64,000 bases of DNA, taken from NCBI GenBank assembly GCA_002633005.1, contig NMRA01000706.1:28197-92196 (forward strand), in the 5' to 3' direction. The stretch is from Phoronis australis. Its lineage: Eukaryota; Animalia; Phoronida. This document shows positions 8,498-53,329 of the stretch, piece after piece; within the stretch, counting starts at the first letter, position 1, and each line of letters opens with the position of its first letter. The notes under the pieces are model-generated. The model did not search any database. It was given only the letters and a program-made list of their open reading frames with translations, and was not told where the DNA came from. Made by a program: the position numbers and the translations under genes.

Positions 8498-9887
8498 CTG
8501 CTAGTATAGAATCCGCGCACTGATTGACGGGAAAAGAACTTGCACTGCAGGGGTTGAAGTGTGTGCATTTTTGGGACACGCGTTCCATAGCATTTTCCCC
8601 AGCCGCCCGGCAGAATCTGGACCAGTGGCCGTGTTTCAACAAGGAATTTTGATACAGCTCTATAGGCCAAGGATTTCGGGATCATATCTTTCAAAATGTC
8701 TTCAGGAAATGACCGTATTAAAATGAACTTTTCCCGGAACTGGGTCAAAAAATGACCCTGGAGCCAGAACACGGGCATAGGTTCGAGTTAAGCCGCACGT
8801 CTTAAATGAATCATAGCGGAGCTAACCAGCGGCTAGCATTAGTTCGTCAATTGCACATGCATGGATCAGACTTCCAGGCGACTCGGACGCCACGACACCG
8901 GCCACCGTGACCGTGGCGTGAGCAGCTAATTTCTTCACTAACACCTGCTTCTAAATCTGGATTTAAGCAAAATGACGAAATCCACGCTTACACACATGCA
9001 AGCGTATACATATACAATTAAATGCATTTTCATGTGAAACCATTCAATGTTCAAAGAACATTGACTTGTGCGAGTTCCTAATTTTCTTAGATATGCCCAA
9101 TCATTGAGGTAGAACTGCGTTTCAAGTCATTCACTATAGGCACCTGAGGGTACAAATTCGAAGTTCGCGTCGTATGACATCATATGACGTAGGAGATGCG
9201 AGCCTCATTTGCATATATTATTGACATCTGTTGGTTCAAAAAAGAGGATCATGCCCGAGTACATGCCTGGGAAGAGGCATCTTTTGGAAGGGTAAAATAA
9301 GTCATGTTCAAAGCATCCTAGTGCCATTAATATGCACTCTTTGGGGACCAAAGTGGTGTCATTTTATAGCTAAAGCGTTAAGCTTTCAAACACAATGCTT
9401 GGATTTCAGACGACTGTAACATCTACTTTTGAAAGCACTTTTGAAAACACGTTAAAATGCGCTAAAACAGTTGTCCCTTCCTGGTTATCTCTTCCTGATA
9501 TTATGTAGCTACACATGAGGCTACGGCATTTTGATATGAGTGGAGCAAAATAATGTTTTGTAATCTTCGTTAAAGTGACAATATTTTATGTGTGTTGATA
9601 AATGTACGGGGTGGATCTTTGGGGACCTTCTATTCTAACTACGGGATTGCTTGTCTACAAGAGGGTGAGATTTTTTAACAAAATAACATTCGTGTCTTTG
9701 TGAAGATATAACTCTGCCACGCGGTTGGGGTGACGTCAGTACTAAGATGAGTAGGCCTACATGTACTGCATGTATCCTGGAATGTGACCGCGTGTTTTCA
9801 AGGTAATGCTTATCCCATTGCATAACAAATAAACCAACGCACTATTCACCGATGGTTTTAACTGAAACAAACACAAAAATTGAATAC

Positions 9888-10056
9888 CTTGGCATTTCTT
9901 AATCGACATGGCTTCGCTGCGACCGTAATAATTATTATTGTTGTTATCCGATAGTCCAAATTTGTCAGCCGTTACGAAACTTTCGGGAATGGCACCCTCT
10001 TTAACAGCTTGGTTGAGAAGAATTTTAGCCATTTCTGTCTCGCTCTCGTATGCAAC
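9888..10056 (-). CDS. Exon E16 (last exon that can be placed)
   Basis: ctaattttccag|VAYESETEMAKILLNQAVKEG...SIKKCQ|gtattc. The phase-0 acceptor matches the E15 donor. An alternative phase-0 donor lies at 9850. Confidence 0.7.
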
Positions 10057-16000: not shown

Positions 16001-19000
16001 CTTCGGTGACACTGACATGGTCGTCTCTTTTTCGAGAAGGCACTGGCGGCTTTCGTCTCATCCAACTTCCGCTTTTGCTACCTTTCACTATGTTATCGTG
16101 GCTTTCTGACTGCGTTTGGCGCCTCACGTTTCCCGGATGCGGGGTTGTTCTGTCTTTGCTAAGTCCTTGTCTGCTACCATAAAACGTTTCCGAGTGGTTT
16201 GCCTCAACTGGCGGCACTGCATCGTTTTCCCCATCGTTCTGTTGCTTGCTGAAGTCGCTCTGATTTTTAATATCATCACTCATGTCCTCAACGAGCTCTG
16301 TTCTGTTAATTACTTCATGTTCGCCCGATTCCTTTTTCTTATAAATTTTCTTTTCAGGTGTAGGACTTGCTAAGACTTGAAGGAGATTTTTCAGAACTAT
16401 ATCGTCAATGCTTGTATCGAGACTGTGGATATCTTCATTTTTGCTTGAATTCTTTCTTGCCGAAGATGAATTATTTTTGCTATATTGGCTCCCCGCTGAG
16501 TGGGAATGTTCTTTGTGTCTTTGCCTTCTGTTGTTCCTTGGTCCATTGTACGTTGATTTTGATTTTTTACTCTTATTCTCACTTTTCCTACGTGAAGGTT
16601 TACGTCGTGTTTTAACCGAACTCGGTGATGCAAAGGTATGTACCGGAAGTGGCTTGGAGTCAGGTGGTATCCAATTTGGATACATTTGAGCTTCATATTG
16701 TGGGACTTGTCCACGTGTTGAAGCAGCCACATGGTGATTATTTTCGGGCGTGTAAATATTTTGAAGGTTGTTCGTCGTTTGCAATCTTTTTGCTAAGCCT
16801 TTTTGATTTTGCCCTTCCTTGGATATATTCAAGTGCATGTTTTTCTTGGTACGAAATGAGTTTGTGGGTACAACTCCACCATCGGATTCAATAACACACT
16901 TGACAAATACAGTGTCAGACTCACTCCCGTCGTCAGCTGCAAGACGAAAAAAGTCAATATCGCGTACTGATGGTTGATCTTCTACAGACGTTTTCAGAGA
17001 ATGCCCAACAGCTCGAGTGGTCTCATTTCGCAGACCACATGTCTTTCTTGAGGATTTGTCTCGGCTGTAATGACGCATTTGTAGACGCTTCTTGTCCGAA
17101 CGTTCTCGTTTCCTGTTCTTTTCTAAACTTGTTTTTTGTCGTCTTTTGTATCTACTTTTTCGCTTAGTACCTAGTTTCAGGTGTTCATCTGAACAACGCT
17201 CTGACGTTTTCGTCCGTCCTCTGTCGTTGCTTTGATTGCGATTTTTTGCAGGCTTTGAGGTTGTTAAGAAGTTGCCATACATTCTATGTGGACTAAATCG
17301 GTCTGCCTGGTGGAATCTGTTTGGTTGTCGAACCGAGTTGTTTCTGTTTTTATGCAACGGAAATGGCGAATTAAAATACGGCAACGGATTAAGTGGCTGG
17401 TCTTTCAAATAGTTTTCAAACTGCTGCAACATCATTTCTTTCCTTAATCTGCTTCCTTCCTGCTGACCCGGTGACAACGTCCATTCGCCAACCCAGTTTT
17501 CAAAGTCGCAATCGTTACTACGTACTGGTCTCGATTCTTCTGGAATTACTTGTAGCCGTCGGGGCTCGTACAACCGTTCTGAATTTCGCTGGCTATATGT
17601 TTCGCGTTCGCCATTGTGCACCATTGACCTCCCCAATAATGGCGATTCTATGAATGGTTCATCCATTGACCAATTGTATTCATCTTTTGACGGTGAGCAA
17701 CCACGCAGTGATGGTGGCGGGTTTCTAGGAGCTGGGCTGGAAGACAGTAGCTGAAACTGTTGTGGAAAAGATGGTGGAAGTGGTGGTGGTGGTGCTCGTG
17801 GTGNGGTATCTGTTGTGGCGGCTGATGCATTGGTTGAATGGTTTGTGGAATATGAGGCATGTGCATTAACGAAGCCTGACGGGGATCAACGTCGTACGGT
17901 GAATGGAATGGCGGTGTATTCAACCCAAACGGCGGTAGACATGTTGACGCCGGAGGTAGCTGCTTTGGTGCAGGACTGCCCTGAATCACGATTGTTGGCT
18001 GACCAGACTTAAATTCTATGCTTGCAGGGTTTTCATTATTGTTTGTTTTATTGCCTGCGTTTTGCAGCTTGTTTGACTTGTTATTCAATTCTATCATATC
18101 TCCGATAGCGTCAAAGATATGATCGATATGTCGCTTTCTAGGCCTGTAATACCGTCTGTATTCACTGCTACTAGACGTGCTCCATCTCCTTCTACGAGAT
18201 CTACTAGTCTTCCTGGATCTTTCGCTTTCTCGTGTTTTACTGTTATTCCTGTTCTTGCGACCACCTCTCGTGGGCATCAATTCGTCGATAGCTTCAAGCA
18301 CCGACTCCTTTGTTTTCTCAACTAAATCGTCGTCATAAAATTTGGTGGTTGGGAGATCTTCGATGTCCAATCCAAGAGTATTCATTGGGGGTCCATTGAA
18401 AAACGCCATCGGTTGAGGAGGCTGAAGCCCCTGGTTTTGTGGAAATGGGGCTGTATTGAAAGGTATTGGTGGGCCGGGTGGAAAAGGTGGTCGTGGCAAC
18501 ATTATTTGCATCGGTGGAAATGGTGGTCTTAGTGGTACTGGGCCGAGGGATGGCCCGGGTGATTCGTTTGCATCAAGATTCTTTCGTGTTGGACTGCTGG
18601 GTAACATAGTGGAGCCATTAAGACTCTTATGAGAATGTTCGCTTATGATTGGACGACTTCCTCGTGAATCACCGTGTCGTGGGTTATGATGGTGATGGTG
18701 GTGATGATGATGTCTATTTCTCTTACCACTTCCCCTGCGATGCCTTGATTTTCTTCTCTTCTTTGTCTGTGGGTGCCTACTCATCGTACTTCCTTTTTGT
18801 GAAGCGGACAGCGATGAAGTTGATGCGTCATTGTGATTGTTTGCGGATCTATTGCGGTTGTGATTAGTAGACACGTTCCTTGGAGAAACAGTAGGCCATC
18901 GGTTCCAGTCGGAAAACCCTAAAAAATATGACAAAAAGGAATATTAAGTATACATTAAACATAGCAAATTATTCTTCAATTGATTTTTCAAAGTAGCCGC

Positions 19001-25000: not shown

Positions 25001-28000
25001 TTCCAAAACCTTTGTCTTTACTGTATAGGGTAGAAATCTTTTGAATCACTAAAATTTTTTCCTTGATGTCTTATCTGGTCATTTATATAAAGTATCGGGT
25101 TCATTTCTTTTTTATGACACTATTACACGCTCTTATTTTTCGCATTTGGTAACACTCTTGGTTTTAAGAATTAAAAAATACATTCAAACAGTTAGATATG
25201 CAAAATGATTATTACTTATGAATTAAATTATTTATCCTTTGCTTTTGATATCATCATGAAGAACTGACAAAGGGCTTTCAAGTGATATGGCTCTTATGCA
25301 ATTCTGTAGAAAAACGGCGGAGTTTCGAAAAGTTTTAATGACGGGGAATTCCGTAGCATGTACGGTACATACACCGGAACAAATGAATGCAAACAGCTCT
25401 GACGCATGTGCAGCGCAACCCCAGCAGTTATGAGATATGAGTTGGCATTCCAGGGCTAGAGTTCTACGCCTATATACTTACTGAAGAAGCCACCAGACGA
25501 CACGTGGTACCCGGGTGAACGATTTGAAGGTGCGTGATTTCTTAGCATTGCTGGTTCGATCATTTGTTGCCGCTGTATTTTTGTGTTGACTGGTTGGTTT
25601 GCTATGAGAAAACCGTCATGATGCATATGGGACAAACGTGTTGGTCTGTAAAAATGCCTTGGGGGAGTAGAGTACACGTGACCGTCGTACCCGTAGCGTG
25701 GTCGAGGATTGCAAAGCCACTCTGATGGCATCTCCTGATACGGGCGGATGCTGGCCTGTGGTGCATAAGTATTATGTGACCGCGGCACCGACGGTGATGC
25801 ATTCTGGGATCGGTTACATGTTCTGGATACTCGCCTTGTGTTGTTTGCCTGCAGGGGCATGCTTACAGAGCCGTGAGTTACCAATTGAGAGGGTTGTGTA
25901 CTCCGTGCAATACGCCTATCTGACATTGTGCGAAATGCATAATCAGTGGTCAACGGATGATCAAAATAATCTCTGCTTTCTTGATTATTAGCGTCAGAAA
26001 AATCAGTTTTGCACATAGAACTCGATGTTTCATCATCATCTCTGTTCTCTGAAGCAGTTTCGTAGCTTTGCGATGTAAAGCTACCAGAACTACTGCTATT
26101 TGACCGTCCTGTTACCGACGGCGACCGCCTGTTGTCATAGATACTACTATTATTTTCGTCGTATGCGCCTTCATTGTCGTCAGTATCGTCGTATGCGTCC
26201 TCGCTGTCTTCAAATCCATAGTCACTCTCGTCATTTGTGTAGTCGTCTGCTTCACTCGACTCTTTTCTCGACTTTTTCCTGTCGGCTTTTGGTGATTTGG
26301 AGGGAGTTTCTTTAGATGTTTTAGCCGATGCATTCTTCTTAGGGCATTTCAACCATACACATGGTTTGCCCTGACCTGTAATACGAATTGCTAGCCGTTT
26401 AATGTGATGTATTCCTGTGTGACGATACTTGGCATTTTATTCATTGACATATTAGCTTTTGCCTGATAAGGTCATGGAATAGCCGAGCACAAGGAATAAA
26501 GAAACCCATGCCAATAACTGTCCATCAAGTTAAGTATTCGCCAGAGAACACTGTAAATGGAAAAGTATAACTCGTGAAGTTTTTCGTTGTCATAGAAACA
26601 TGACATTTTGTTTGCTAAAGAGAGAATGCAGAAACGTTGGTTGAAAGACCAAACGTAGATTGTCCCTGAAAATTTAAAGTTTCCAAATGTTCGAATGCTA
26701 TGAATTTCGTGATTTGCAACGAATTTGAAAGCCTTAAACTGTTAGAAAGTCCACCGTGAAATATATTCACAATCGATTATTTGCTACCTTTCTTGTCATC
26801 CGTTCCTGGTGAGCACATCGTGAAACACGGGAAGGGCGTACACGGAGGCGGCGGGGGTAGAATAGGCGGTGGAGGTGGTGGCATTTGAAACACACTCGGC
26901 GGTTGTTGGTTGAAGATTTGGTGGATTGATGGCGGAGGTTGCTTTCTGTTCTCCCGAGTATTGTACTTCCGTGGAGGTCTAAGTGGACGCCTGGACTCTT
27001 TTTCAATCATTAGACTTTTTGTCAAGCCTTCTTTACCGGCCAAGGCTGAACCCCCGGTTGTGGTTGTTCCAGCAGTCGTCGCTGTTATCACTTCCGGACG
27101 TCCAAACATTGTCTTTGCACGAACTGTTCTGTTCGATGAATTGGCACTTCTGAACGCGCTTGCCATTCCTCCGCGCCACAATTCTCTCAATTCATTTACT
27201 GCCGTATCTCTCTCCTCGTATGTGTCATGGACTACCTCCCTAGGCATCCCTCTCCAGTTTCTCCTAGCGCAAGGTACTTTCTTAATAACAATTCTTTTCG
27301 ACCTTTGTTCGCCCAACACGTCATCTTTGTCTTCTTCGTCTTCCTCATCTTCAGTTTGGCTTTTTTTGCGTGTCTTCAAGCCAAGTATTTTTTTCATTTT
27401 ATTTCCAAAGCCACCAGCACTGACATTCCTGTTGGGCGACCAATTTACTTTTAACCCAGACAAGCTTTGCTTATGACGTGACGGATGACCACTCCGAAAG
27501 GAAGGCTTTGTTCTGATGAGGTCAAAGAATGACCGCCTGTCACGATGCTTAATTTCCATTGGTTTTCTCATTCCAGGTGGCCTTTTAGAAAAATCGTTCG
27601 AAGACTTGGGTTTTCCAATAGCTTTGCGTGACATATTGACAATTTCTCTGTCTTTTTCGGTTTTAAGTTGTTTTTTAATATACCTTCGGCTTTTCTTTAA
27701 CGATAAAAGTGATGACGACGTTCCCCACGGAAGCCATGAAAGAATACGATCATTATTTTTTTGAAAGTCACTTTTTGTAACAAAACCCAGAGAACTTTTC
27801 ACCTGTCTTTCGCGTTGATGTTGTGGGAACTTGCTTGCACCAATCCGTGGATTGTCTTCCTTCTTGAAGTACGAACACTGATTACGTTGATCTGGCCAGC
27901 TTGTTGATGGTCTCAGGACATTCTCAAATCTCTGGATTTTAGATTTAATTTCCGACCTTTTGACTATTTTCTCAAGGGATTCCAGTCGTTTTAATCTGTC

Positions 28001-31000
28001 TTGTTTGATGTCTGACGTCACCCTGTGCTTAGTTCGCATTTCTTCACCTACATTTTTTTGTTTGTGGAAAGCGGCACCCCTGAGTTCACTGTCCGTGTTA
28101 ATGAAATACTGCATGGGTTGATGTTTCCGAATTTCATTTTCTAGCCATACCACCTTCTTTGCAACTCTTTTAGAAATTTTCCGATTTCTGCTCTTCTGTC
28201 GCCCCTTCAACACTTCGTCCCAGCGCCAAGGTCTCACGAACCATTTATCTGTTTTTTTGCTTTGGTCAGTTCTTATGCTAGCGCCATGTCCTCTTTCTCC
28301 CGTTTGCTTGTCATTGGTATTGAGACCTTTTTTCGTCGTCGATGTTAACTTTCCTTTGCGTTTTACTTGGAAATTCCCCTGTTTAATAGAAGCACCTTTT
28401 CTGTATTGCATTGTTTCCCTGCCATCCCGATGTCCTTCTTTCAGTCTCGTTCCTTCTCGACTGGTTTTAATCACCTTACAGTCATCGATATCCCCTTGAC
28501 GGTGTTGTTTCTTTATTCCGCATTTCTCTCTTACATGTTTTTGTCTCCCATTAACAATATACTCTTTGCTTGCTGCCTCTCCTCTGTTAGTCACTTCTGT
28601 ACGCTCTTTTTCAGTCGGGTTATGATTGCTGTGGGAATTGTTGCCGGACATAGTTAGCACTGCTCCTTTTACTGCAAAAAGTATTTGGACAGTTTTTTGT
28701 GTAACTGGTGATGCCTCAACGCTATTTTTAAAGTAGTATTCACTCTAATACAGCTCTGTGAACGCACAATAACAAGACTATGAACAACAAAATGACAATT
28801 AGAACAACAACGTAAACAACAACAGCCACGATTCGTAGTGTATTTAATGAAAGCATTTTTCGTTTTATTGGAAGCGCTGAAAAGACTTGTAATTTACGTA
28901 CATATTTTATTCACTCCAATTTGCCACAAACTTGGTTTTGGTTTTTCCTTATTGGATATCGTCTTCAAAGTGTCATCGTGGCGAACCTGTCTGGCCGAGT
29001 TGTTGGTTGAAACTTTCCGCGCTACTGAAAAATTGTGTCCACAACCCGGGGGCGTGTTTGAATGGAAAAAGTTGTGTAATCGTGCCAAGAGTCTTGTAGT
29101 TTTTTTACGATAGTGGGTTCCGATTGCCTCTAGAGGAATGGCTGATATTTTCGCATCGACCTTCTTCTTTTTCAAGGCTCTGTTTGACTCATCCATGTAC
29201 TTAAACGTCCTCAGTAAATTGCGTGCCGTCAATGGAACAAATGCAGCTTCGCTGATACCGCTGATTTGGCAGGCATCTCCAGCACTAAAATTCATTTCGT
29301 ATGGGAACCAAACATTGTCCTTGTTTTCTATTACGGTAATGGGCTGTCCGGTGGTTTGTGACGCCGTTTTCAAATGACAGGTCGAAATGGCGTCTCCGCT
29401 ACAACTCAAGCTCATTTCAGTTGTTCTATTTAACATGTTTTTCAGATGAATACTTTTACTGCATCCCAAAAGGGAATGCATAAATGACTTTGGATTCTTT
29501 ATGAATCTAGTCATATCAGCAAACTTGTCTGAAAACACTGGTTTGGCATCTAAAATAAATGGACAAACAATAGCGTCAGGTACACGTTTTCTTCCTTTAT
29601 TCGACTCTGATTTTGGTTCATATGTGTCCATAAACGGGTCTCCGAAGTTGTCGAATCCGACAGATATAGTCCTCAACACTTTCGTTCCTTTCTTCTTCCC
29701 ACCCTGATCTCTACTGCTTCTTATACTGTTGTTTTGACGTGGTTGTGAAAAATGCGACCATCCTTTGGAATTGTGTCGAGTTCCTGGAAAGTCGATTGTT
29801 TGTATGATTTCTTTGGATGGTTTCACGCGCCCTTCATTGACGAATGATTCAAGTTTTCTCCAAGCCTGTGTCTTTGCTTTTTGAGGATGCGGGTTAATCA
29901 CAAGCTTTTTCGGACTTCTTGAAATCACTGCCGCTTTGACATCATCGTTCATTTTGTCCGATTTCTCTGAATTTATTGGACTTTGATCTGACGTGCCATG
30001 CTCATCAGCACTTAATTCATCATCAGATTCTCCTTCTTGGTCATCGGTGTTGTCATTTCTATCGTAATAGTCACTCTCAACTTCATGAACGTCATCGTCA
30101 TCTTCATACACACTATCGCTTCCATCGCAGTCGTACTGGTTTGTGCTCGAAACACTGTTGTTGGAATCTGATGCAGTATCTCCAACCACTTGCCCTGCCT
30201 CCTCACTCTCGAATCTCTCTTCGTCGTCACTGAACTCGTCTTCTTCGCCACTTTCAAAGTAGGACAGTGAATCTGTGTTGTCAGTAGTGGTCGTTGTGAT
30301 GCTGCAGGAGCAATCAGAAACGCTGTTTGTTTCCAGAGTGTTGGATACAGAAGTGCACCGTCTCGCTCTATGTTTACTTGCGGCAGGTCGTTTGTACATA
30401 GACACTTCGCCGTCATTGGAGCAGAAGTAGCTATCCGTGGTCAAGCAGCTGGAGGATCTCTGGCAATTGTTAACATTGTCGTCTTTCTCTTTGCACGTTC
30501 GACATGCCCACTTTTGACCTAAACGAAACAGTTACGTGGTCACCATACTGAATGGTAACGCTCGGTTGATCGGTACCAAAGTAAGTTGAGTTAACCAACG
30601 TAAAATTATTTTGAATGTGAATATATTCCACAGCAGAGGCAAGTTCTAGATGAACGGGCATAACAAGCAGAAAACACGCAAATCGCTTATCAACATGCGC
30701 CCACATTGGTGCATCGCAAACGCCATACATACACGGAGGTATTAGGGCCCTACATTTCTATCGGAAACACACGCATCAAGTGATTGCGCTAATTTATTTT
30801 GAAAAGGATTTTTTCGTGCTTTATCAAAAGTTTTTTCCTTACACCAGGTTCGTTTTCTTGTCATTTTTTCTGTCCTGAAGGATATCTGACTGGTCGGCAT
30901 TTTACTTTGGGATTTTTCTGTCAGCACAATTCATGTGAAAATCAGTTTTAATCAAATGAAGGTTGTGTTAGCACTCCGCAGGTAATTGCTTTAATCGGCA

Positions 31001-34000
31001 TTTTAAATACTTTGCACTCCGTGAAGCGTTTTCAAAATGTCATGGTTGTCATTTTCGGTTGATACCTGTGAATGTGTCGCATTTTGATTAGATATCGTAA
31101 TGGTGTGACCTGGCCCCGAAATTATCGTTAGAAACAGGACAGTGCGACATCTCTGGATTCGCAGAAAAGAGCAATAAATTCTGCAATAAGTCACATTTGT
31201 TTCATTACATGTGGCGGAACATACAGTGTAGGTCCTTTCTTATAAACACTGTTCACTGTCCTATTATCTCAGCTGAGTGACACGCAAGCTTTTTCTCGGA
31301 CCCACAAACATTGACCACTAACTGCCGCACACCCCGTTTACAGGTGGTATGTGAGTCATGTTTGCAAGTTGGGAGCAGTGTTCTGAGGGTGCAAAAGTCA
31401 TGATGTGTGAGGCCGCGTACCACGTTTGCCGGTTGGTGATCTGTGCCTTTGAGTTGGCAATCTTAGCTGAAACGTGCTTTTAAGGGATTAAATATTTCAG
31501 GAATGCGAAAGCCGCACACTAAACGAGGAATTGGAGTGTCTTCTTCCTACTTGATTGGATATTGTTCCTTCTAAATGCATTTGGGAATATTAAAGCGAAT
31601 TTAGTGTTCCACCTGCTAGAGCTACGAAAGTCCAATTTGATATAAGGGTGGCAAAAGTCTTTGAGAGGCAGTTGAATTTACTTTACCTTTTCAATTTAGA
31701 GATAATCTGTGAAGGGATGGTATGTTGCTTAAAGGCGAAGGCAACCTTTTTCCATGTCATTTTGAGCGAAAATAAGGTTGGTTGGTTATCCTAGACATAT
31801 TTTTCACTTAATTACAGCTTTTNNNNNNNNNNNNNNNNNNNNNNNNNNNNNNNNNNNNNNNNNNNNNNNNNNNNNNNNNNNNNNNNNNNNNNNNNNNNNN
31901 NNNNNNNNNNNNNNNNNNNNNNNNNNNNNNNNNNNNNNNNNNNNNNNNNNNNNNNNNNNNNNNNNNNNNNNNNNNNNNNNNNNNNNNNNNNNNNNNNNNN
32001 NNNNNNNNNNNNNNNNNNNNNNNNNNNNNNNNNNNNNNNNNNNNNNNNNNNNNNNNNNNNNNNNNNNNNNNNNNNNNNNNNNNNNNNNNNNNNNNNNNNN
32101 NNNNNNNNNNNNNNNNNNNNNNNNNNNNNNNNNNNNNNNNNNNNNNNNNNNNNNNNNNNNNNNNNNNNNNNNNNNNNNNNNNNNNNNNNNNNNNNNNNNN
32201 NNNNNNNNNNNNNNNNNNNNNNNNNNNNNNNNNNNNNNNNNNNNNNNNNNNNNNNNNNNNNNNNNNNNNNNNNNNNNNNNNNNNNNNNNNNNNNNNNNNN
32301 NNNNNNNNNNNNNNNNNNNNNNNNNNNNNNNNNNNNNNNNNNNNNNNNNNNNNNNNNNNNNNNNNNNNNNNNNNNNNNNNNNNNNNNNNNNNNNNNNNNN
32401 NNNNNNNNNNNNNNNNNNNNNNNNNNNNNNNNNNNNNNNNNNNNNNNNNNNNNNNNNNNNNNNNNNNNNNNNNNNNNNNNNNNNNNNNNNNNNNNNNNNN
32501 NNNNNNNNNNNNNNNNNNNNNNNNNNNNNNNNNNNNNNNNNNNNNNNNNNNNNNNNNNNNNNNNNNNNNNNNNNNNNNNNNNNNNNNNNNNNNNNNNNNN
32601 NNNNNNNNNNNNNNNNNNNNNNNNNNNNNNNNNNNNNNNNNNNNNNNNNNNNNNNNNNNNNNNNNNNNNNNNNNNNNNNNNNNNNNNNNNNNNNNNNNNN
32701 NNCCGGTACGCAGCAACAGTGTGGCATGTTGACTGACTAGTAAATGAAAGCGAACGACGACGGAACTTAACACAACCGAGGTAGAACAATGACTGACTCG
32801 GCAGCTCTCACAGTCAGACTATGTGAAAAGAAATTGGCGGGAAGCGCTTGCCTCCTAAATCGTCATTTCCAGAAAAGCGGACGAATAATTAATAAAATTA
32901 CGAAAAGCTGTAATTAAGTGCAAAATATGTCTAGGATAACCAACCAACCTTATTTTAGCTCAAAATGACATGGAAAAAGGTTGCCTTCGCCTTTAATTTT
33001 AGTGTGTTGTAACAGAAACATATAAAAGTACTGATCCTTAGACATTTTTTTCAACCGTGACTTTACTTAAAAAGGCACTTAACCCGCTCTCTCTCTCCTC
33101 TGTCTCTCTCCCTCTCTCCCTCCCTGCCTGTGTAAGCGAATTCGAATGGTGGTTTCAGGGATAAAAACGACAGATTTTGTGTATTTCTGATCGTTGATTG
33201 AAGTCGGTAGACGTTTATAACAAACCTGACCCTCTGCACAAAGACTTTTAAACTCTCTTTATTTCCGTGAATCTAAATAAAACAATCATTCTAGACTTAC
33301 ATGTATATTTCCATTGATGGTCATCAGCTTTGTTACACCAACATCGTTAATGAGGCTGGGGTAATTTTTAATGTTTTTAAATGCTGCACCTTAAAATCGA
33401 CGAAATCACATGGCGGTCAACGACAAACTACCAATTCCGTAAACTAAAACAGTGAAGTGACTGCTACCATGATTTTTCTCAAACCAGTAAACACAGTAAG
33501 CATCTTCTAATACATGTAGCATTAAGCTAGGTGCGTAGCTTTAGCCGGTTGTGTCGCCCTATACCATAGAGACCTGTATAGAAACCTATTGTGTCATATT
33601 TAACGAAACATCCTCCAACTTCGGTGATCGTGGGAACTGTAGAAAACCTACGGTTAGACAGACGGACGGACCAGGGTCCTCGATCCCTCAAAATTGGGAC
33701 CGAACATCGGTCCCATTCCTTTCTCAAAAATATTTAAAAATTCAGGCAAAAGTATCCAGTCTGAACGATCAAAAATCCCTCTCGTGGTTTCAAACTGAAG
33801 CAATCTTAAAAATAACGTCTTCAATTCCTCTGATTTTGATCACGAAGCAGCTACACGGGAAAAGTCACAAACTGGTTTCTTTATGAAGCAAGTGTCACAA
33901 ACAGTGCTACTACAACCAGTAGACGAACGGACAGACGGTACATTGTACATGTAACTCACTATGATCTCACATGTCTGAATGTGGGCACATACATGTGACA

Positions 34001-37000
34001 GGTTATTTCGGTAAAGCATTAAACACGGCGACAAACTTTGAATTATCCTGTAGGGTTTTAATTTGCATGTAAATGTGCAAGGCAGTTCTACATGTCGTCA
34101 ACTTACCGTTGTTGCACGGGCTTGGATTGCAAAAAGGAACTGGTGGACAGCTGGGGAACGGAGGGCATGGCATTGGTGGTGGCGGCGGAAGTATTGGCGG
34201 CGGAGGAGGCGGCATCTGAAATACACTTGGTGGTTGCTGGTTGAACGTCTGTACGATGGTTGGCGGCGGGGGCGGCTTTTTCTGTTTGTATCGACGAGGC
34301 GGTCGTAATGGCCGCGTAGTTTCCTTTTCAACAACAATTCGTTTTTCTAAACCCTCAGCACCCGTCGTATCAAAGCCCATGTATCCCCAGTTAGACCTTC
34401 CTCTGTCGCCCGTGCTCGATCTAAATTTTGAGACTTGCCTGTTCTTCGTTCTACTTCTTTCTGACACGCGATCAAACTTCCGAACAGCATTTCGAATTCC
34501 ACCGCGACAAAGGTCTTTGAGCTCTCCGATCACTGTGCCTCTGTCCATGTCGTCGACAATACAGTTGTCAGGTGCACAGTGATTTTTCCGGACAAAACAT
34601 GTTCGCCGGGCCGTGGGAACTCGTCGGATAACCAAACTTTTTCTCCCAGGTAGTTGCGGCGTGCCATCCTTTTTACTGGCGGCACGCTTGTTTTTAACTG
34701 AAGATTTGTTTTTCGACTTTGACTTTTGTTTGCGTTTGGAGGATTTTGCGTTTGCCGACACGTTTGGTCTAAAAAAATCCATTACGGATCTTTTCTTAGA
34801 GGTGTCTGGTCCGCTTGACCTTAGCGCTTCTGACTGCCTTGAGGATTTTGTGCTGTTGGACCTGTTGATCCAAGCCTCTGGTACTTGACCAGTTTTTCTC
34901 AAGTATCGCTTACTCGGCGGTCTGTTCGTTAATGAACCAGATACACTCCACGAGAACCAAGGAATGCTTTTACCACGCCTCTTCCCTTCTCGTGTGTTTG
35001 CAACGCTAGCACTGCGTATACTTTTCATACTCGTGTCATTGTGTTTTGGTCCCAAATTACCATCTACCGTTTTACTTATCTGCTTATTGCCGGCCTCGCT
35101 TGGATTTCCATTATCTACTTGACGTGAAGATTGAGACATTCTGGGATGTTTTGACTTCGAGAAAAGCCAGTTAGGTAAGGTTTTTGTCACGTTAGAAAAG
35201 ATATTTGGTTTTTTGTCTGACCTAGGGTTCCCTTTTTCACTTCTTTCCCCGTCTCTAGTCTTGCAAGTGCCTTCAAGTGATGTCATCTTTTCCGTCTCCG
35301 TCGTCGTAGATTTCATGTCGTTAGTGTGTGCCTCGGAAGAATTTTCGTCCACGATGTGGCGCCTTAGTGAATTGTCTGGGATTGACGTAGACTTGCTTTG
35401 CTGTGCCGTTTCCACCTTTACGTCCTCAGTTGTCGCCCTGCCCTTGTGTCGGTGGAGTTCAGAAGTTTCGTTTCCTTTCGAATTTCTCTTCCGTTCTGCC
35501 CTCGCTTTTGCTTCTTCTCGTTTTAATTTCGCCCTAGTAAGTCGTGACAACTTTTTGTTCACCGGCTTTCGATCTCTTGAAGCACCTAAATTATTGTAAA
35601 TAACGGAGGTACGTGGAATTAAATTATGGAAACCAGGTTTTTTTAAAATCGTCATAAAATTTCAGTCGCAATATCGCCACATAGAGATCGTTTGGTTAGC
35701 GTTACCATTGTCCACTTTCTGTTGCTTTGTTACATGTGTATAACAGAGATAATGGTGAGCATTTATCGGTAACCGGCTGATGTGCGCCCAAGATACGATA
35801 TCCATGTGACTTGCATTGTTTTATCCAACAAAGACCCAACGAAGTCCCATAGGTGATAACCATGCTACACGCTTAGTCTCGTCTCATGGATGTCGCAAAT
35901 TAATCAATACCTTGCGAGCTACATACGACGTGACTTGGCATGGGAGCTGCTGAGTGCTTGTAGTGACAATTTTTTATTTTGTTACACCGGCAGAATTTCA
36001 GTTACTGTGGGTGATTGATGGCCAACAATCACTTCACAGTAAATCACTCAGAAACTCATAATTCTCTCTTTGTCAACCCTTAACTGAAAGGAGCATGCGA
36101 CCGAAAAAAACACCTAATCTGTATCAATTTAGATCGAGTAGCTGTACTGCTTAATGTCACGTACGGTTGCGTTACCCGACACCTGACGGCAGACGGAGGT
36201 GTTGAAATTACCCATTGACGTAATTGGTTTCGTACGCAGTCTGTTCAGCAGTTCACAACACATGTAACTGGTGTCAGCTTATCGCTTGAATTCATCGTTT
36301 AGCACCGATAAATCATCAAACTTCGATGTAAAACCCTTAAAAATGCACCGAGTTCTTATAAAAACGTGTGGTTTTATTTCCCTGTTACGGATTTATTGGT
36401 ATTTGGACACACCGTAAATGTAGCTTCCAAAGTTCGGCAGGTCAATAAGGTTCGTAGCAGGAGTCTGTTTGGAGACAAATTCGAATTATTTTCCGTGAGG
36501 TACAGACAGGAGAACCCAGATCTGTGTAGTTTAGACTTGTGATTCTTTGAGTTCTAAACACACAAAACGCTTGTTATCCTGGCTAGTAGCTCGGAGCCCG
36601 ATCAGACCCGTCGCGGCCGGCCGGATCAGTTGACTCGTTTTCCCGGCCAGTGGCTCGGAAACTGATCAGACATCACGAACATAAACCAGCCAAAGTTGGA
36701 AACTAAACTCCCAGTCAAGAAAATACTATACTAGTGAGCCAAAGTAACTCGCACGTGATTATGTTGGTGAATTACCCACGAAACTACAAATCTACTTACT
36801 CGTCGGGAGCCGCGAATTTAGGTTCTGCTTTGGTCACAGCACCGTCAGGGCGGAAGTTGTACATTCACAATCATTATTTTAATAATGTAAATGTAAATAA
36901 AGACTCCCCTAACACCAGCTGGCCGTGGGGTGGAAATCGCCTGAGTTGTTTCTCAACAGTTTCTGCCAGCAAACCCTAAATTAGTATGAGCTCAAACGGC

Positions 37001-40000
37001 GTTTGTGTCCCGTCAATTAATTATTGCACCTAAAGCCATGACGTACAGTAGTGATTTATTCATTGCTGGCTTCTCAAATCATTTGCACTCACGAACACTC
37101 CAAAGGTATTACAAATTGCATCTAATGAGCCAGACTTTGTTTCAGTTTTATATAAGTATTGGTTAGGGCGAGAATAATTCATTTTGAAACACAACGCTCA
37201 GTAATAAACATCAACATGGCAACTGAGTTGCAATCCCGACTTAGACGAGAGCTCATCACTCGATCCCTACGAAGACTTCACAGGTGGATCGTTAAGTTTC
37301 ACAGACTATCAATCCGAACAGGAATACAGTGATGAAGAAATACTAGAGAGGCGCCGTGAACAAGCTCAGACAACGGAACGTATGGATTGGATAGTTATTT
37401 GATAAGCCGGCATTCGTCAGGCACTGTCGACGACTGCAGACAACAGACACGGCCTCATACGTGCTATTTACAGCTTACTTTTCATGCTTTACTACCACGA
37501 GCCATATCCTAAGCATTTCGGTCTCTCGAGGAAGTCTAAAAAACAATATACCCGTTTTCCTCGCTGCTGCACAATTCGGACAAGCGGGAACGATGCACCG
37601 CAACATAGCGGCATTCACTCTGCAGATGAACCACTGACGTCGCTTGCGTCGTTGCTCACCTTCCTCAAAGTTAACGCGACACCTCTTGGAAAAGTAAGGT
37701 CGACCGTATGCGAGGCAATGTGGATATAGACCGATTAAGACGGCAAAAAGACGAGTGGCATTCTCCTTTAAGACGACTTCCAAAGCAATCGCGTCATTAT
37801 TGCCAACACAAAAAACGGATTTGGTCTGTTGGGCAATTAAAGACTATTTTAAATACAACAAATTTGTTACGAACTGATTGCACAAAATATAAAGCATGTA
37901 ATAAGCATTACAAAAAGAAGGTTTCGCGCGCAAACGCTTTGGACCATAAACAAAAAGGTCTCTTAGTATCGAATTAGGAGTTAAATCGTCGCGGTGCAGT
38001 GGTAAAGCACGCGCGTTCTGTCCGCCAAGACGTGAGTTCGAGTTTGTTTGCCTTTTTTCTTGGATAATATTTCGGGAATCATGGAAAATGCTTGATTTTT
38101 AGATGAAAAAACACCAAAATTTCCTGGCAAAACCCCCCTCCCGAACTCCCCCCATTCGGTGCTATGCGCATCTACAATCGTGCTTTGAGCAAATGCTTAT
38201 AGACAAAATGTTGCACCCCCTTGTGATATCCTAGATCTGCCACTGGTGTTGTTTGCTTTTTCTCTAAAGTACAAACTTTTACGCCGCTTTTGCAAGCTAA
38301 TTGCACGTTCCAAGAGGACCCCTATTGGTGGTTGAGGCAACTGAGAACAGGCAAATAGGACGAAGTGCAGTTCGTGAGCAAAAACTACCGACGGGGGAAT
38401 GACTAAACAAATTATTATAAGATCAGTTTTTGAAAAGGTGTAATGTGGCTGCTACAGAGTGCCAAATTTGGTCGAAAATGGTTTGAGTGATGCCTGCTAT
38501 GCGTCTCGACAAATATTGTTTTTTCGGGCGAATAAAGAGGCGCGACACTTCATGCAGTTTTGGTGATGTAACATTCGAGGTGGCAAGCGGGAGCAAACAT
38601 GTCAGATTTAAAATAAAAACGCACCACCCCAAGAAGAAATGCGTCACTAGCTTCAAGCTTCTGTTTTCAAAGTTCCAAAAATGCATCGGTTATAATACAT
38701 GAATCCATCTTTGTGGCTGTATTCCACCCTTTGATGGGCCATATACTATAAATTCGTTTTAATTTCCATTTAACCCAGCACTGTTCACCGAATTGTTTAG
38801 CAGCGACATTTGACGAAAGGCCAATTGACTGAGTCCCCGATTGCTTAGAGTTTATTTGATTCATCATTGCCTTTTGCATATGGGTAGCATATGACTGTAT
38901 CATTGGCATAGATGAACGTTCTAGAACTAATGACTGCAATAATTGAAGTAGAAGGTAGAAACAGCGGATGTCCCGCGATGGTATTTTCTGGTGCCCCTGC
39001 GTTGAAGTACTGAATGCTATATTTGTGTTGACAATACGCCGTCTTCTCCGGCTTTACATACTAAGTTTTACAGACGGGAATAAGTATGCGAGGTTCCATA
39101 AACGAAAAATTGCCAACTTATAGCTACATGTATGAGGTGATTAGAGGGATTTTAATAACACTGTTTAAAGCTGTATTTGCATGCTAATGTATAGCAGTAA
39201 CTAAACGACAATGGTAATTGAACAACATCTACATGTACGATAAACAAGGTGTAGTTGTACTCACTGACAACTTGTAAATGTAAAAACAGTTCTAAAAATA
39301 GGAAAATCTACCACTAACGACGTGCCTTGGGGGATCACATAGCCAGCATTATACAGTGTTATCCAACACCAAGTCACGATACTTACTGGACATGGTTCAG
39401 GGATTTACGGTGGATCATTTTCGACAAAAAATCGTTCTTAAAACATTTGGCAATTTTCAAGGTACTTCACATTCATATTGTCGCTGTGTTGTGTTTGTAA
39501 CGAGTTTGACCATGCAGTCACAGATACATGTATAAGGAATTTGCGTGCAAGGTCAGCTTTTACATGTAGGTCTAGATTTTACTTACCTTGGCTGTGCTCT
39601 TGAGCCGAATTGTTTATTGATGCGTGTCTAGCAATGATGTGATTAACACCTTTCTTACATCTGTGTGATGATTCGCCACATCCAAAGCTCTGCATAGCTC
39701 TAACCAGGTTCGTGAAACTCCTAACTGGATGACCGCGCTTCTGTCTTTTTGATCTCAAATTACAGCACGATTTGCTTCTGACTTGTTCTTGTTGCCTTGT
39801 GCATCCTGCTCTTTTAGGAAGAAAACGCCTCAACACTGCAGCGCCACGAAGTTTATGTTTTTTAATATCTAAAAAATAACTATGCTGCTCATCACTGTTT
39901 GTCAGAGTTTCTTGTGACATTATTGCTTCACGTTTTGCCTTCTTTGCTATATCTCCTGACAGTACGTGACATGGTTTAACTTTCATCGCGCTGTAGCCAA

Positions 40001-43000
40001 ATATCTCGGCTAGATGCTCGGAAAATGGATTTTGAATCACATTCGGAAAGCTTGTCCACACAGGAAACACATATGGCTTTTTTATAATTCCTTTCAGTTT
40101 TACCTTGGGGTTCCAAGGGTATTGTTTCTTTGTTTTACCTCTTGATGACCTAGGCACACGTTTCTCTTCCGTTGATGGGTTTACAAACATGTCAAATCCC
40201 AAGTGTGCAGTTTTCACCATATTTAGCCGTCTTCCATTGTCGTCATAGTCCAAAGACTTCCAAATCTTGTTGAATTCTCTTTCATCGCGTTGTAGGTTGG
40301 CGCAATAATTTGGACATTGCCAGTTAGGTATAGAATATGGTACATTCTGGTTGAACCAGTTAGGTATTGCAACTTGAGGATTGGGATTGAAACAAGAAGC
40401 TGTTGATGCCGAAACGTTATGAGGGTTGTTTGAATTGAATGAAGTTTCACCAATTTCTGAACAGTACGTGTTGACTGGTCTGCCTTCATTAATATATATG
40501 GTTCTTTGGTACGGTGATGTTGCCTTTCTTTCGTTCCTGTCAAGCTTCAGTGACACCTTCTTTTGTCTATAGGCCGATGAAGCACGTTTTACTCGTTGCA
40601 CCAAATATCTCCTTCTAATAAAATCATTATGCGAACTTAATGCTCTTGACAGATAATCAGCTTTTGATGGCTTCTTTCTAGTGCCTCTGCCAAGCTCCCT
40701 ACGGTCAAAAGTGATAGGGTGATCGGGTATGAACGCTTTCCTTTTTGTTGAAATTTCTTTTGTTTGATTCTTCCTATGTGCTTTCTTAGGGGATTGCATT
40801 TGCACCTTCTTTGGCAAAGGTGGCACCATCCTAGGGTGCTTTGTTAACCATACTGAAGTATTTGAAGATTCGACTGGCAATGAATTGTTGTAGTTTTCTA
40901 AATAACATTTACTCTGTAACTCGGGAATGGCTGCCAAGGAGGAAGCAGCTTGAACAGAGTCCATTTTTTTACTCTTGTCTTTATTGCTAGCTTTATTTTG
41001 CGGCTTCCTTATAAACTTTTTGCGGCGTTGACGTTTTTGAGAAGATGTTATATTCGCTGACTCGTTCTTTCGTTTTAGTGGTTTCGTCGGTGCGGACTTC
41101 TTGACAGGTGAAAAAATGCCAGTTGGAAAATCTGAGCAAAAATCAACAATACCATTGATAAATGGAAGCGATCTCGTCGTCCTTCTCGTATCCCGTTCTT
41201 GTTTCAACACTTTTCTACGAGGGGTTCCTACTTTGTTATTCATCGACTTAAATACACTGTCCAAATGATTGTCTGGGCAGTGTTCAGTTATCAAATTCTT
41301 TTTGGGAACTGTTTTCCTCTTGAAATGGGGCCTGTTCAAACTGTGTTTATAACTAATACGTGTTCTTTTTTCTCGGTTTTCTCCTTTTTGGGAGCTATAC
41401 AGGACAGTGCCAGTGGATGTAGTGGATGTCATTGAGGTTTCCGACAACATGTTATCAGAAAAAACAGCCACAACTTGTGAGGAACTGTCGTTTGCGATTG
41501 TTTTGTAACTTGACATATTCTCCTCTGAGTTGGCGCTGCCTTCCTCTGAACTTTCAGAACTACTTAGAGACCAATCACTAGAAAATTTGTCTGCACTGCT
41601 ATCTGGGGGTTGCGTAGCAATGAACCCCTTTTGTCGACCTTGAAAATCAGAGCTTGAACTTTGTCTTTTAGTAGACGGCGAGCCACTTGGGTTATTATTG
41701 CTCCTACTTCGTTGTCTTGTGCAACGCGCATGTCTGGGAGTCGGTGAAGCACTAACACTTCGCCTTCGCTCCGGACACTCCGGTACTCCAGGAAGGAATT
41801 GCCTATCACTTGGTAATGTGAGCAGAGACATGTCGCTGACGTGGTTCAAATCTTTTTCTGTTCCAATTCCAACAGAGACAAACTTCCGTGAACCACTGTG
41901 TGTCGCCACTTCCATCTGTTCTCTGTTCTCTTTGTCCGATTTCCCGTTAGCCTCGTCCTCTTCCATTATGACGTAGCACTTATTATTGTTCACAGTTTCA
42001 CTAGGTACAGACTCTTGCCCTTCTACTGAGGGTTTCTGAATTTCAAGGGCCACGCGTGAAATTTCCGACACGCCTTCACTGGTTACGGAGTCGTCCGACT
42101 GGTTTGATTTGGAGTCTGGTGATTGTTTCCATCTCGGGTCACTTCGGATTATATGCTCAGCATACGAGAACATGTCCATTTGCTTTTGCAATTCTAAACT
42201 TTCCGATTCTCTTGGAATTAATTTGCCGAATACGTCTCTTACGCTATGAAACCAATGACTGTTTGATTTTACTTCCTCTGGGTTGACCTTAGATACAGCC
42301 GAATTACTCTCCGTTCGACAGCTGACGTTTTCGTTTTCAAAGAAAAAATGTTCATCTTCGGGAATTACGTGCTGCTCTAAACGTAAAATAGCTCTTACCA
42401 AACGTCGAGAACATCCGTGGTTTTCTAGGGTTGCTTTTGCGACGCCTTTAAAGAAATTCGGTGGTATTTTTTTATTCGAAATTAAGTCGTAATAAGCTTT
42501 GGTGAAGTTCAATGCATCCTGAATTAATCGTCTTGATGAATATTTGTTTTGTTTAATGATCCGCTTTCGCCAGAGTCCATGTTTTGCAACCCAGTGTCTG
42601 TTGTGGTGAACACAAGCAAAATGGGGCATTCGTACTTTTTGGCCTTGCAACGTTAAAGCCCGACGATTATCTTTAGTTTCCCTTGTTATGTTATCCGGGT
42701 CATACAAGATTTCCCCTGTGCTTCTGTTACTGACTACTTTAACATCAGGATTTAAAGTGGACGAGCGAGGTTGGAGGTTGTGGACCATCTTTTGAACGTC
42801 CGGAATTCCCAGACTACTGACAGTGTCCCGATAAGTGGAAGCCTCCACTTTCATTATTTTCGGAATGTCTGCCCTCCTGTGGATGCGCCCAACCATAGTA
42901 AAATCGTTGTGAGTGAAATCCGGCTGCTCGTTTCGAACGATTGGTTCACCTTTCAATGTCTCCACGGTTTTTCTCCAAAAACGATCATAAATTGAGATTT

Positions 43001-46000
43001 TCTTCCTTCGGTAAATACCCATGTCGGAATTTGACGCGCTCTTGAATACTTCCACAAGCTCCCAGTCGTTTTTTAGCTTGTCAATATCGACATTGGACTG
43101 TCTCTCCTTCTTCCAGACCTCTCGCTTTATTTCCATGAGTTGTGGATCGTCTTCTATGCCCCCGTTTTCGTCTATACGTACTCGACTGTGTCGGCGTAAC
43201 TTATTTTTTATAGCTGAAACTGCCGATGATACAATTTTGGAAGGAATGAACATGCTTCTGTCTGGGTATATGATAACGCTGTCATCAGAGTCTCCATGGG
43301 AACTGGCTGAAATGAACGAATTTGTTTGATTTATGTTGCACTGAAATTACGTGCGTCAACGAAATTTTGTTATCAATAGCAGATAGCAAAGTGCACAACT
43401 AAAAAAGACATAGGTACATGTATTTAATTGCAGTAATAACAAAACAAGATCGGGACTGGTGTAACATTCATAAGTGGGTGTAGCGGAAGCAGGGTTGAAT
43501 AAATTTCAGTGTAATCGAATATTAAGATTTTCATACATGTTCCACGAACACTCGTCATAGCTTTTGCGATTTCTTTACAAATGCATTTGTCTTTCAATTC
43601 CTCTTTTACGGCGCTCGTTCCCTCTTCAATCTGGAAGAAATAGCCCAGACATCTCAAAAGATAAAGGAAGTATTTCATTATATGCTGAAAGCGGACACGA
43701 ACAGCCAAAACAAATTCACGCTTTGTATTCATAAAATACACTTGCGGTATCCAGTGGAAGCCCATTTAAAAAATCAATTAGTGACTGTTTTATTTCGACA
43801 TATGCTCGACTAAACTGGGCAATAGTACTGTCACGTGCTGTAATTCGTACCAAGTTTGGCGGTGTCTGGTTAAATTCTTTCTAAGTATGCAATGTAATTG
43901 TACAAGTTGTTAAGTTATGCATCACTCTGTAAAGCTTAGTGGGGCCAGTCCTTATCAAGATGTGACGTTTCGCCATCTTAACCATCAAATATGAGTCAGG
44001 AGATATTGTACAGGTTATTACTTGGAGTGGTAAATCGTACATTCACTGGCACCCGTGGCATAAGTAGAATCTACCTCTCGTGACGTGTAAAGGTACGCGC
44101 CCTATCAGTGATGAATTTGCAGTGTCAGACATTACTCATTTTTAAATCAGTGCATTTTTGTGATTTGAAAGGACTCCAGTTTCGCTAATTGATGCGGCTG
44201 TATTCTTGGTTTTCTTTTTCGAAAAGACTGTTTAGAGTTAAAGGCAGCAGGGCTACATTTTACTAGGGAGTTAGTTTGCCACGGAGAAAATACCGATCCG
44301 CCACCTTACGAAAGATGACTTTTACATGACTTCCAATGGGGATGAATAAAAACACTGCGAGAACATCGTATACTAATGTTTGTAAAAGATTTTTGTTTGA
44401 AAACTGGGCGGACATGAAAAGACTAACGCATTTCTTTTACAAATATCTTAGTCGAAACACGAATGTTCTAGTGTGCTCGAAAATGGCGACCATGTGACGA
44501 GAATGATGACTCGGATGGAATGAGCTCCGATACCTACCAATATGGGCGTAGGTTTCCTTCCTACCGCTTTATCAAAAGCTGTGGTAACTAGTTCTGCGAG
44601 AGTTTTTTCCGGTCCTTTCTTAGTCCTCCAAGTTTTCGTCTGCGTCTCCTGGTCAAACATGTCCGCCCAGAATGGTGGCTCCTCCTCACGCGCTGGCACA
44701 TCTAATGATGCCAGGGCGGTTGCGTCCACTTCGACGTCTTTGAATTCCCTTTTTTCGGGTGAATCCTCGGAATCAGCAATTGCCTATGCAAATGTATCAA
44801 GGACTATTGCGAATTAGACATTTCCAAGTTGCCCCTAAGAGTTGTAAGACTTAACAAATGTTGGAAATGACTTTCAAAACACTACAATCGACCCAGTTCG
44901 TGTGATTTTTTGTTTGACATTAATGGAGGAACGATTATCGAAAAATGCCCTAAGCCCACTGATTGAACGAGCGACGTGAAAGATTCATTTTTTTAAATCT
45001 ACACGGTGTCCGAAAGTAGTTAAAAACGTAGATAGGGTTCAAGTATTAACAGAAAAGCCTTGCCAAAACCAATAAAATGGCATGCTGAGAGATGACATTG
45101 AAACAGTCTTCGTAATAGTCACCCCCGAAATCAACTGATTTTATGACAGACATTTTTTGAGGTTGGTTGAATCAAATCCGTGATTACGTCCAGAAGCAGC
45201 ACGTGCAGTAATGTTGATGATTAAGTGGACATCAAAACACAGAAAACTATACTAACGCACTCAATATCAAATTTAAAACCGCCATACAGTAGTAGTTCTA
45301 GACTTAAACTGTAGCACTCGTGTTGCGAACTTGTTTATTCTTAAGTTTTTTAAGATTGCAATACTTCTGTTTAATGAGTACATCTCGGTACGCAGCAACA
45401 GTGTGGCATGTTGTCTGACTTGTAAACAAAAGCAAATGACGACCGAACTTGTTACAGCCGAGGTATAACAATGACTGACTCGACAGCTCTCACGGTCACA
45501 CTATATCAAAAGAAATTGACGCGAAATTCTTGCCTCCCAAAACGTCACCTGCGGAGTAAATGGTGAATACTTAATTAAATTACTAAAAGCTATACTTCAG
45601 TGAAAAAGATGTCTGGGATAATAAAAAAACCTTGTTTTTGCTAAAAATGACATGAAAAGTTTGCCTTGCCCTTCAACAGCGTTTGTGAGAGATATCGGCA
45701 AGTTTTCATTTAAATAAGGTTTCATTAAAATCGACCAAATTGTGTTTTAGTATTGTACCGTTGCTGAAAATGAAAACTTGACCTAAAGAGAGCGGCCACG
45801 TTATATTGACGATGGCACGTATGTATAAAGTGTATTTTTATAATCTATCATCTTTCTACACATACTGAGTTACAAAATATACTTTTATAGACATTATGTT
45901 GAATGCACACATTTTGTCGATATGGTCCTACATAATATTAAGCTTGGCTTAATAATAATTTTAAAATTTAAGTTCACATTGCGCAGGTTGTTAAGTTCAC

Positions 46001-52594: not shown

Positions 52595-52672
52595 TTCTGT
52601 TACGGGAAAACATAAGTCTTATTACCTTTCGAACTAAAAGTGTTAAAATATGACGTTTGTCAGTTCATCGTA

Positions 52673-52852
52673 ACAGTAGTTGTGATGGTAGTGGGGGTGG
52701 TGGTGGTGGTTGTTGTTGTAGCTGTCTATCAGTTGTGGCAGCAGTAGCGGTAGTGGTAGTGGTAGTAGCAGTTGGTAGTGGTCATGATGGTGGTGGATGA
52801 TTTTTGTTGTTGTCTAATAGTTGTTGTGGCAGCAACAGTAGTAGTAGTAATG

Positions 52853-52895
<43 letters not shown>

Positions 52896-53170: not shown

Positions 53171-53329
53171 AAGCTGTAGTGGTTTTTTTGAAAAAGATAA
53201 TCGGAGTCGGTCTGATACACCTTATATCAGACGTGCGCCGGCCGCACATGTGGGCATATTGCACCGATCATATGGAATCACTTTTATGCTTTATTAATAT
53301 ATAGTTAAAACAGAACTGAATACATAGAA

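Follow-up and report, generated by a model that had tools for sequence, protein, structure and literature searches.

Proteins of the polycystin-1 family (PKD1, PKD1L1-3 and PKDREJ, sea urchin SpREJ1-10, and s-Themis-A/B of Ciona) share a characteristic membrane-proximal region. In PKD1 proteins, a PLAT domain follows the first transmembrane helix (TM1), is always intracellular and is regarded as a polycystin-1 hallmark, and the GPS lies just before TM1 (PMC1934368); the PLAT domain of polycystin-1 binds phosphatidylserine, phosphatidylinositol 4-phosphate and beta-arrestin (PMC9672506). SpREJ7 has six TM segments (PMC1934368), s-Themis-A has no channel (PMC7018956), and some members are tissue-restricted, PKDREJ and SpREJ1 being found in testis (PMC1934368, PMC7018956). 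Disordered proteins have also been described that arise from symmetric exons via internal tandem duplication, with SH3- and EVH1-type patterns enriched in symmetric disordered exons (Schad, Kalmar and Tompa 2013, PMC3632108). In a 64,000-nucleotide stretch of Phoronis australis DNA (contig NMRA01000706.1; the window), which is eukaryotic in composition with a GC content of ~40% and long open frames on the minus strand, four consecutive minus-strand exons, E11 to E14, belong to one very long open reading frame (ORF), and E11 and E13 derive from a single symmetric phase 1-1 exon by an old duplication. We put at about 0.55 the probability that the part they share is a disordered docking-motif cluster in a polycystin-1-like protein, within a tail predicted to be cytosolic. 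The original prediction, made from the sequence alone, had proposed an old tandem duplication of a two-exon module at 25482-35585, limits that equal the outer ends of the E11-E14 exons.

E11 and E13 have a common colinear block of ~280 amino acids (aa), and every motif pair listed in the original prediction is present in the same order in both exons. Unmasked BLASTP aligned the two over 411 columns with 30% identity (E 2e-42); soft masking gave 150 aa at E 3e-20, and hard masking 55 aa at E 5.5e-6. The Smith-Waterman score was 386, compared with 114 ± 18 and a maximum of 174 among 300 local composition-preserving shuffles, and after removal of the proline block it was 192 compared with 45 ± 7, a value reached by 0/500 shuffles. 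Similarity between the segments N-terminal of LVIRR/IVIKK was marginal (78 versus 59 ± 10, with 20/500 shuffles as high). When all 28 pairs of eight tail segments were compared, only two scored above all 60 shuffles: E11/E13 (z 14.5) and the proline-rich pair of E11 and the beginning of the exon after E14 (z 3.8). The two copies are thus similar far beyond shuffled controls, and the claim of an old internal duplication stands for the exon represented by E11 and E13.

That this likeness reflects a low-complexity Pro/Lys convergence or an assembly duplicate is extremely improbable. False tandem duplicates do exist elsewhere in this assembly, 13 of the 24 residues that are invariant between the copies (see below) are proline, and the hard-masked alignment shrinks as given above; but the proline-free score and the six colinear motifs oppose convergence, and BLASTN at E 1e-5 returned no nucleotide match between the copies, which are therefore neither a recent nor an assembly duplicate. 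Both copies, moreover, lie in one chain of spliced joints. The proline-free similarity and the splice joints together refute this explanation.

A two-copy profile searched against the six frames of the window found no third module copy at E 1. Early in the exon that follows E14, PRPPFPPGPPIPFNTAP (18428-18808, minus strand) resembles PCPPFPSCPPVPFCNPSP of E11 (z 3.8 against local shuffles), and at ~18330-18200 on the same strand SVLEAIDELMPTRGG resembles TAVNELRELWRGG, in an order reversed relative to the module. Judged from sequence, this echo may be a faint third trace or mere composition.

The selection acting on the copies was examined by codon alignment of E11 and E13. Purifying selection had been proposed from 19 codons, FNQQPPSVFQMPPPPPPIL, in which the copies differ at 11 synonymous and 0 non-synonymous positions; this count was reproduced, and the complete identical block spans 24 codons, with 15 synonymous differences and no non-synonymous one. 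From LVIRR on, 157 codons align; 77 residues are identical there, the proportions of synonymous (pS) and non-synonymous (pN) differences are 0.795 and 0.367, and 15/50 fourfold sites have the same third base, which is near random. The synonymous rate (dS) is not estimable at such saturation, and its lower bound yields an upper limit on the ratio of non-synonymous to synonymous rates (dN/dS) of ~0.20 over the 157 codons and ~0.32 over the 124 that precede the invariant block, in both cases well below 1. At saturated silent sites, this ratio itself depends on how similar the proteins are. Even so, a likeness at the protein level that persists after silent sites have saturated implies constraint, and the proposal of purifying selection holds. 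Within the 24-aa block the non-proline residues are identical at 11/11 positions, compared with 38% identity just upstream, which makes this block the most constrained part of the module. Gene conversion as the source of the invariant block is ruled out by the 15/24 codons that differ.

RNA evidence came from four runs under the same species label, of which X1 and X2 are stranded and X4 is a contig set. In X1 and X2, every exon was covered on the expected strand at a mean depth of roughly 30-80, the read data on the large exon after E14 reaching down to 16100. Stranded reads in both runs join E11, E12, E13 and E14 in frame, and likewise connect the preceding exon to E11 and E14 to the next exon (read counts in the table). 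All four exons are bounded by AG and GT, are multiples of three in length and have phase 1 at either end, and no exon-skipping joint occurs among the joints listed. A small candidate exon near 24400 was dropped, having no listed joint; reads join 25482 straight to 18918. X3 contains zero exonic reads, though intronic repeats are as deep in it as in X1, and X4 shows no expression of the gene over 16100-36000, the interval compared. Expression is on/off between runs, at a rough level of ~30 reads per kb per million versus zero. The intronic repeats at 21412-22739, 35992-38647 and 49793-49857 have heavy both-strand depth in all RNA runs, including the gene-negative one.

Variants in the reads were compared as well. 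Indels are multiples of three in 3/3 listed exonic cases versus 0/20 listed intronic ones, the latter being mostly reads from other repeat copies. There are at least 11 exonic substitutions; among those listed, 7 are amino acid replacements (5 fall in E11's N-terminal part), and both listed substitutions inside the conserved blocks are silent. The codon pattern between the copies had been offered as direct evidence that these exons are translated. The pattern is strong and the exons are spliced in frame, but the evidence for translation is indirect.

The duplicated unit had been described as A1-B1-A2-B2, with E12 and E14 as the B copies. Both exons, each entered at a phase-1 acceptor, open with GT CAR (GQ), have two Cys within ~10 residues and contain an acidic tract with 25 and 21 Asp/Glu in 60 aa, respectively, as had been noted; they are near neutral, whereas E11 and E13 are basic. 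It is thus possible, at somewhat less than even odds, that a two-exon A-B unit was duplicated, that the module extends across the A-B boundary, from polyproline and the Cys/Pro tail to GQ-Cys-Cys and the acidic tract, with metal binding or disulphides there as a possibility, and that B1 and B2 have diverged past recognition. The common GQ start, early cysteines, acidic tract and near-neutral charge fit such a history. However, the local score of E12 versus E14 was 78 compared with 74 ± 9 for shuffles (17/60 as high), and the scores of anchored global alignments over the first 40 aa and the first 200/140 aa were matched by 319/500 and 195/500 local shuffles, respectively, so that no alignment beyond composition exists, either local or anchored. 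Furthermore, the Cys spacing is unequal (CxxC versus CxxxxC), and the exons encode 538 and 297 aa. Duplication of the A exon is therefore retained and homology of E12 with E14 is not. A two-exon history would be compatible with a docking-motif cluster, the one difference being how large a unit was duplicated.

The original account of these exons lacked their host, a protein whose head has the order TM-PLAT-TM-TM. Thirteen GT/GC-AG joints connect the exons into a single open frame of 4,069 aa from Met 52594 to a single N at 17804, in which five exons in a row are phase 1-1. The whole ORF is estimated at ~5,800 aa, with ~1,700 residues past this N and a stop at 12223, counting an apparent 437-bp assembly duplicate once. 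Hydrophobic 19-mers occur in the ORF only at the four places given in the table, giving, behind an initial hydrophobic segment, the TM1-PLAT-TM2-TM3 layout known from polycystin-1 proteins. PLAT was detected with a profile for which 20 of 23 bacterial PLAT matches were used and the other three, short or weak, were dropped. It scored 22.5 bits (E 4e-9, with the spliced ORF as single target) over four exons, and the region scored 30.5 bits compared with a maximum of 8.4 in 2,000 shuffles (1,446 scored) and -1.1 for the reversed sequence; the Pfam PLAT model, run on single exons only, gave E 0.075 and 14.2 bits on one exon, under its cut-off of 23. In five environmental bacterial genomes, proteins of ~450-530 aa with two tandem PLAT domains were seen. 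The domain stands directly after the TM helix at aa 63-81, the position that characterizes the polycystin-1 family, and two hydrophobic helices follow it.

The exon encoding TM2 and TM3 may resemble PKD1 but gave no polycystin match by sequence or fold, so the PKD1 assignment rests on PLAT and the architecture. A word-indexed protein search with this exon returned nothing (265 candidates of 248-2,000 aa, a range outside which a ~5,800-aa orthologue would lie), and neither did one with the last PLAT exon. For the TM exon, the best ESM Atlas score, 0.78, was uninformative; its AlphaFold2 model, with a predicted local distance difference test score (pLDDT) of 63, had no Foldseek match and met only generic helical hairpins in VIA-align (best Z 8.2). 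Three exons searched singly against PDB sequences yielded no useful match. In the 62 residues before TM1, which lie in one exon, have no Cys and contain another hydrophobic segment, Pfam gave no GPS match with E values allowed up to 10. A REJ or channel part was detected neither in the ORF as seen nor elsewhere in the window.

Such a head could belong to a complete 11-TM polycystin-1 member, with the exons for ectodomain and channel located beyond the window or unseen within it and with a giant post-TM3 loop as its tail. At the 5' side, read depth stops abruptly at 52596, right after an AG, an acceptor-like edge; because this sharp edge follows an AG, a further exon is likely upstream, beyond 53900. 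At the 3' side there is a possible donor near 12250 and a candidate exon near 10057, in a part of the window without reads. Yet a hydrophobic segment at aa 5-23 and ~40 polar residues occupy the place before TM1 where the GPS would be expected, no further hydrophobic helix occurs in the ~5,400 aa from TM3 to the stop at 12223, and a scan of 1-12300 and 52600-64000 revealed no convincing multi-TM frame, which together make a complete 11-TM member quite unlikely. A GPS-like Cys/Trp motif is likewise not visible before TM1. Family membership is kept at a polycystin-1-like head, since the first exon has an acceptor-like edge and the 3' end lies outside read coverage.

As for the module, it was claimed to be unnamed, and a profile check agrees: the best E values were 0.11-0.13 in Pfam (no family) and 0.51 in PDB sequences (no solved relative), and the profile had 0 matches at E 0.001 among 1.84 billion representative proteins, a set that evidently lacks this protein itself and may also lack close relatives. 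A word-indexed search with the E11 block returned nothing (4,156 candidates, proteins of 514-2,000 aa, a ~5,800-aa orthologue again being outside the range). AlphaFold2 with the two-sequence alignment gave a pLDDT of 45 and a predicted template modelling score of 0.13, although a pLDDT from two sequences cannot separate disorder from a shallow alignment. The module is basic, and hydrophobic residues make up 18-22%. Of the proposed functional module, the conservation is confirmed, but the predicted structure is not that of a folded domain, and on this model the module is best taken as a cluster of short linear motifs within a disordered tail, not as a new folded domain. PLRPPR and LPPPP are present in both copies and fit the patterns LIG_SH3_2 (SH3 class II) and LIG_EVH1_1, respectively, as given in PMC3632108. 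Polyproline runs of 5-6 Pro are separated by hydrophobic residues (MPPPPPPILPPPPP), and the flanking FNQQPPSVFQ corresponds to no described motif in the libraries searched. Late in the tail, KKVSF occurs at ORF residue ~5566 (12223-14963), an RVxF-type pattern of the kind known for PP1 docking.

On the favoured reading, the PLAT-TM head would anchor the protein at the membrane, and since PLAT is cytosolic and two helices follow it, the tail of >5,000 aa, including both modules, would return to the cytosol. There, partners of the SH3, EVH1 or profilin type may dock on PLRPPR, LPPPP and the polyproline runs, and having a second module copy would mean twice the valency. Tethered to the membrane, the protein might serve as a scaffold for proteins of the cytoskeleton or of signalling in a single tissue or stage rather than as a receptor-channel. 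Our best reading from sequence is that the module would be lineage-restricted and its host a divergent PKD1-like protein. Several observations weigh against a docking-motif cluster in such a tail. The SH3 class II pattern is common, occurring 9 times in the ORF, and the W-motif, RSxxDxxR, VIxxVPxARR and ELxxLxRGG are conserved yet unexplained by proline-binding partners. The exon with TM2 and TM3 has no polycystin match by sequence or fold, and neither the word-indexed nor the 1.84-billion-protein search found an orthologue. Read coverage stops short of both ends of the gene, and X1 and X2 have identical alleles at the listed exonic sites and may come from one animal or pool and may not be independent.

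Alternatively, the tail may be a structural or condensate polymer, its conserved block serving self-assembly or cross-linking as in sperm accessory structures. Net charge swings from ~+20 to -34 per 100 aa along the ORF, Cys/Pro tails stand behind both blocks, expression is all-or-none between runs, and the tail is presumably like sperm Cys/Pro proteins. However, the exact conservation of FNQQ..SVFQM suggests a specific partner over bulk composition, and we consider a polymer unlikely. A more specific version of the docking-motif reading, which we regard as unlikely, is a stripped polycystin-1 derivative of an undescribed class, in which the ectodomain, GPS and channel would be gone, TM1-PLAT-TM2-TM3 would serve only to anchor the tail, and FNQQPPSVFQM-polyproline would be a new linear motif recognized by regulators of actin, for example in sperm. 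Expression in the germ line or in sperm is conjecture by analogy with PKDREJ, SpREJ1 and s-Themis (PMC1934368, PMC7018956).

Coordinates of the gene are collected in the table. The 3,720-nt exon before E11 has no significant similarity to E11-E14.

Features of the minus-strand gene in the window; joints are given as reads in X1+X2 at the 5' end and at the 3' end
Feature	Position	Strand	Description	Joints (5'; 3')
First read-supported coding exon	52322..52596	-	Met at 52594; hydrophobic aa 5-23 and 63-81 (TM1)	
PLAT/LH2 domain, ORF aa 109-234	46939..51529	-	exons 51580-51502, 50074-49901, 48120-48054, 47047-46904	
Exon with two predicted TM helices	46029..46452	-	aa 278-296 and 334-352; entry via GC-AG intron	
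Two small exons opening the tail	44783-44538 and 43630-43537	-	joined by reads	
Exon before E11	39587..43306	-	3,720 nt, phase 1-1	
E11 (copy A1)	35585-34107	-	1,479 nt, phase 1-1, isoelectric point 10.8 (basic), ORF residues ~1741-2233	64+42; 43+43
Module copy 1	34108..34965	-	IPWFSW, RSVMDFFR, LVIRRVPTARR, IGELKDLCRGG, PLRPPR, polyproline block, Cys/Pro tail, in this order	
Invariant 24-codon block, copy 1	34174..34245	-	from ORF residue 2188; donor 22 codons downstream	
E12	30518-28902	-	1,617 nt, phase 1-1, GQ start, two early Cys, acidic tract 30135-29956	43+43; 61+39
E13 (copy A2)	28671-26788	-	1,884 nt, phase 1-1, isoelectric point 10.5 (basic)	61+39; 36+62
Module copy 2	26789..27742	-	LSWLPW, RSFFDLIR, IVIKKVPCARR, VNELRELWRGG, PLRPPR, polyproline block, Cys/Pro tail, in this order	
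Invariant 24-codon block, copy 2	26843..26914	-	from ORF residue 3359; donor 18 codons downstream	
E14	26375-25482	-	894 nt, phase 1-1, GQ start, two early Cys, acidic tract 26313-26134	36+62; 56+34
Large exon after E14	12223..18918	-	single assembly Ns at 17804 and 15401	

The GC-AG intron at 46453-46903 has read support of 14 and 24. The single N at 17804 lies inside a read-covered exon; the frame shifts there, and the flanking reads leave the true letters unsettled. The possible donor near 12250 lies close to where the last long frame ends, and further exons may be present downstream at 10057-9890 and ~5976-5893, in the region without read coverage. Near-perfect tandem duplicates occur at 14964-15840 (437 bp), 21769-23043 (626 bp) and 1797-2026 (77 bp), each accompanied by one N that separates or adjoins its copies (15401, 22422 and 1874, respectively); these are probably contig-overlap assembly artefacts. 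Dispersed repeat copies, 80-98% identical, are located at 6619-6923, 7637-7708, 31729-31822, 32703-32996 and 45372-45676, two of which flank assembly gaps. The repeat opens a frame MPxCCCVxGC, which may resemble the start of a THAP-type transposase.

The duplication serves as an internal control, since comparing two copies whose silent sites are saturated singles out the 24 residues that matter in a very long orphan tail, and the block is a ready peptide for partner screens, the motif so far coming from one gene of one animal. If the architecture holds, a polycystin-1 membrane core would have been reused without receptor or channel parts.

Polyproline docking regions are known from formin FH1 and from WASP/WAVE and Ena/VASP ligands, and the runs of 5-6 Pro found here are alike; in contrast, Pfam revealed no FH2, WH2 or EVH domain in the exons scanned. 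Titles and abstract beginnings of the literature searched, most subscription papers lying outside it, contain no description of this architecture. As in the polycystin-1 family, PLAT/LH2 comes right after a TM helix, and further predicted helices follow. Unlike that family, the ORF as seen gave no sign of REJ, GPS/GAIN or channel parts, has an extra hydrophobic segment ~40 aa before TM1, and continues after TM3 with ~5,400 low-complexity residues in which no further helix is predicted. With the symmetric-exon disordered proteins (PMC3632108), this locus shares phase 1-1 exons, predicted disorder, internal duplication and SH3/EVH1 patterns, and E11 and E13 are homologous phase 1-1 exons with read-supported joints. 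The motif counts of that study refer to short human exons, whereas the exons here measure 0.9-3.7 kb, the copies are split by another exon and their synonymous sites are saturated. The mechanism of duplication is of a known kind and ordinary, and the host architecture is unusual.

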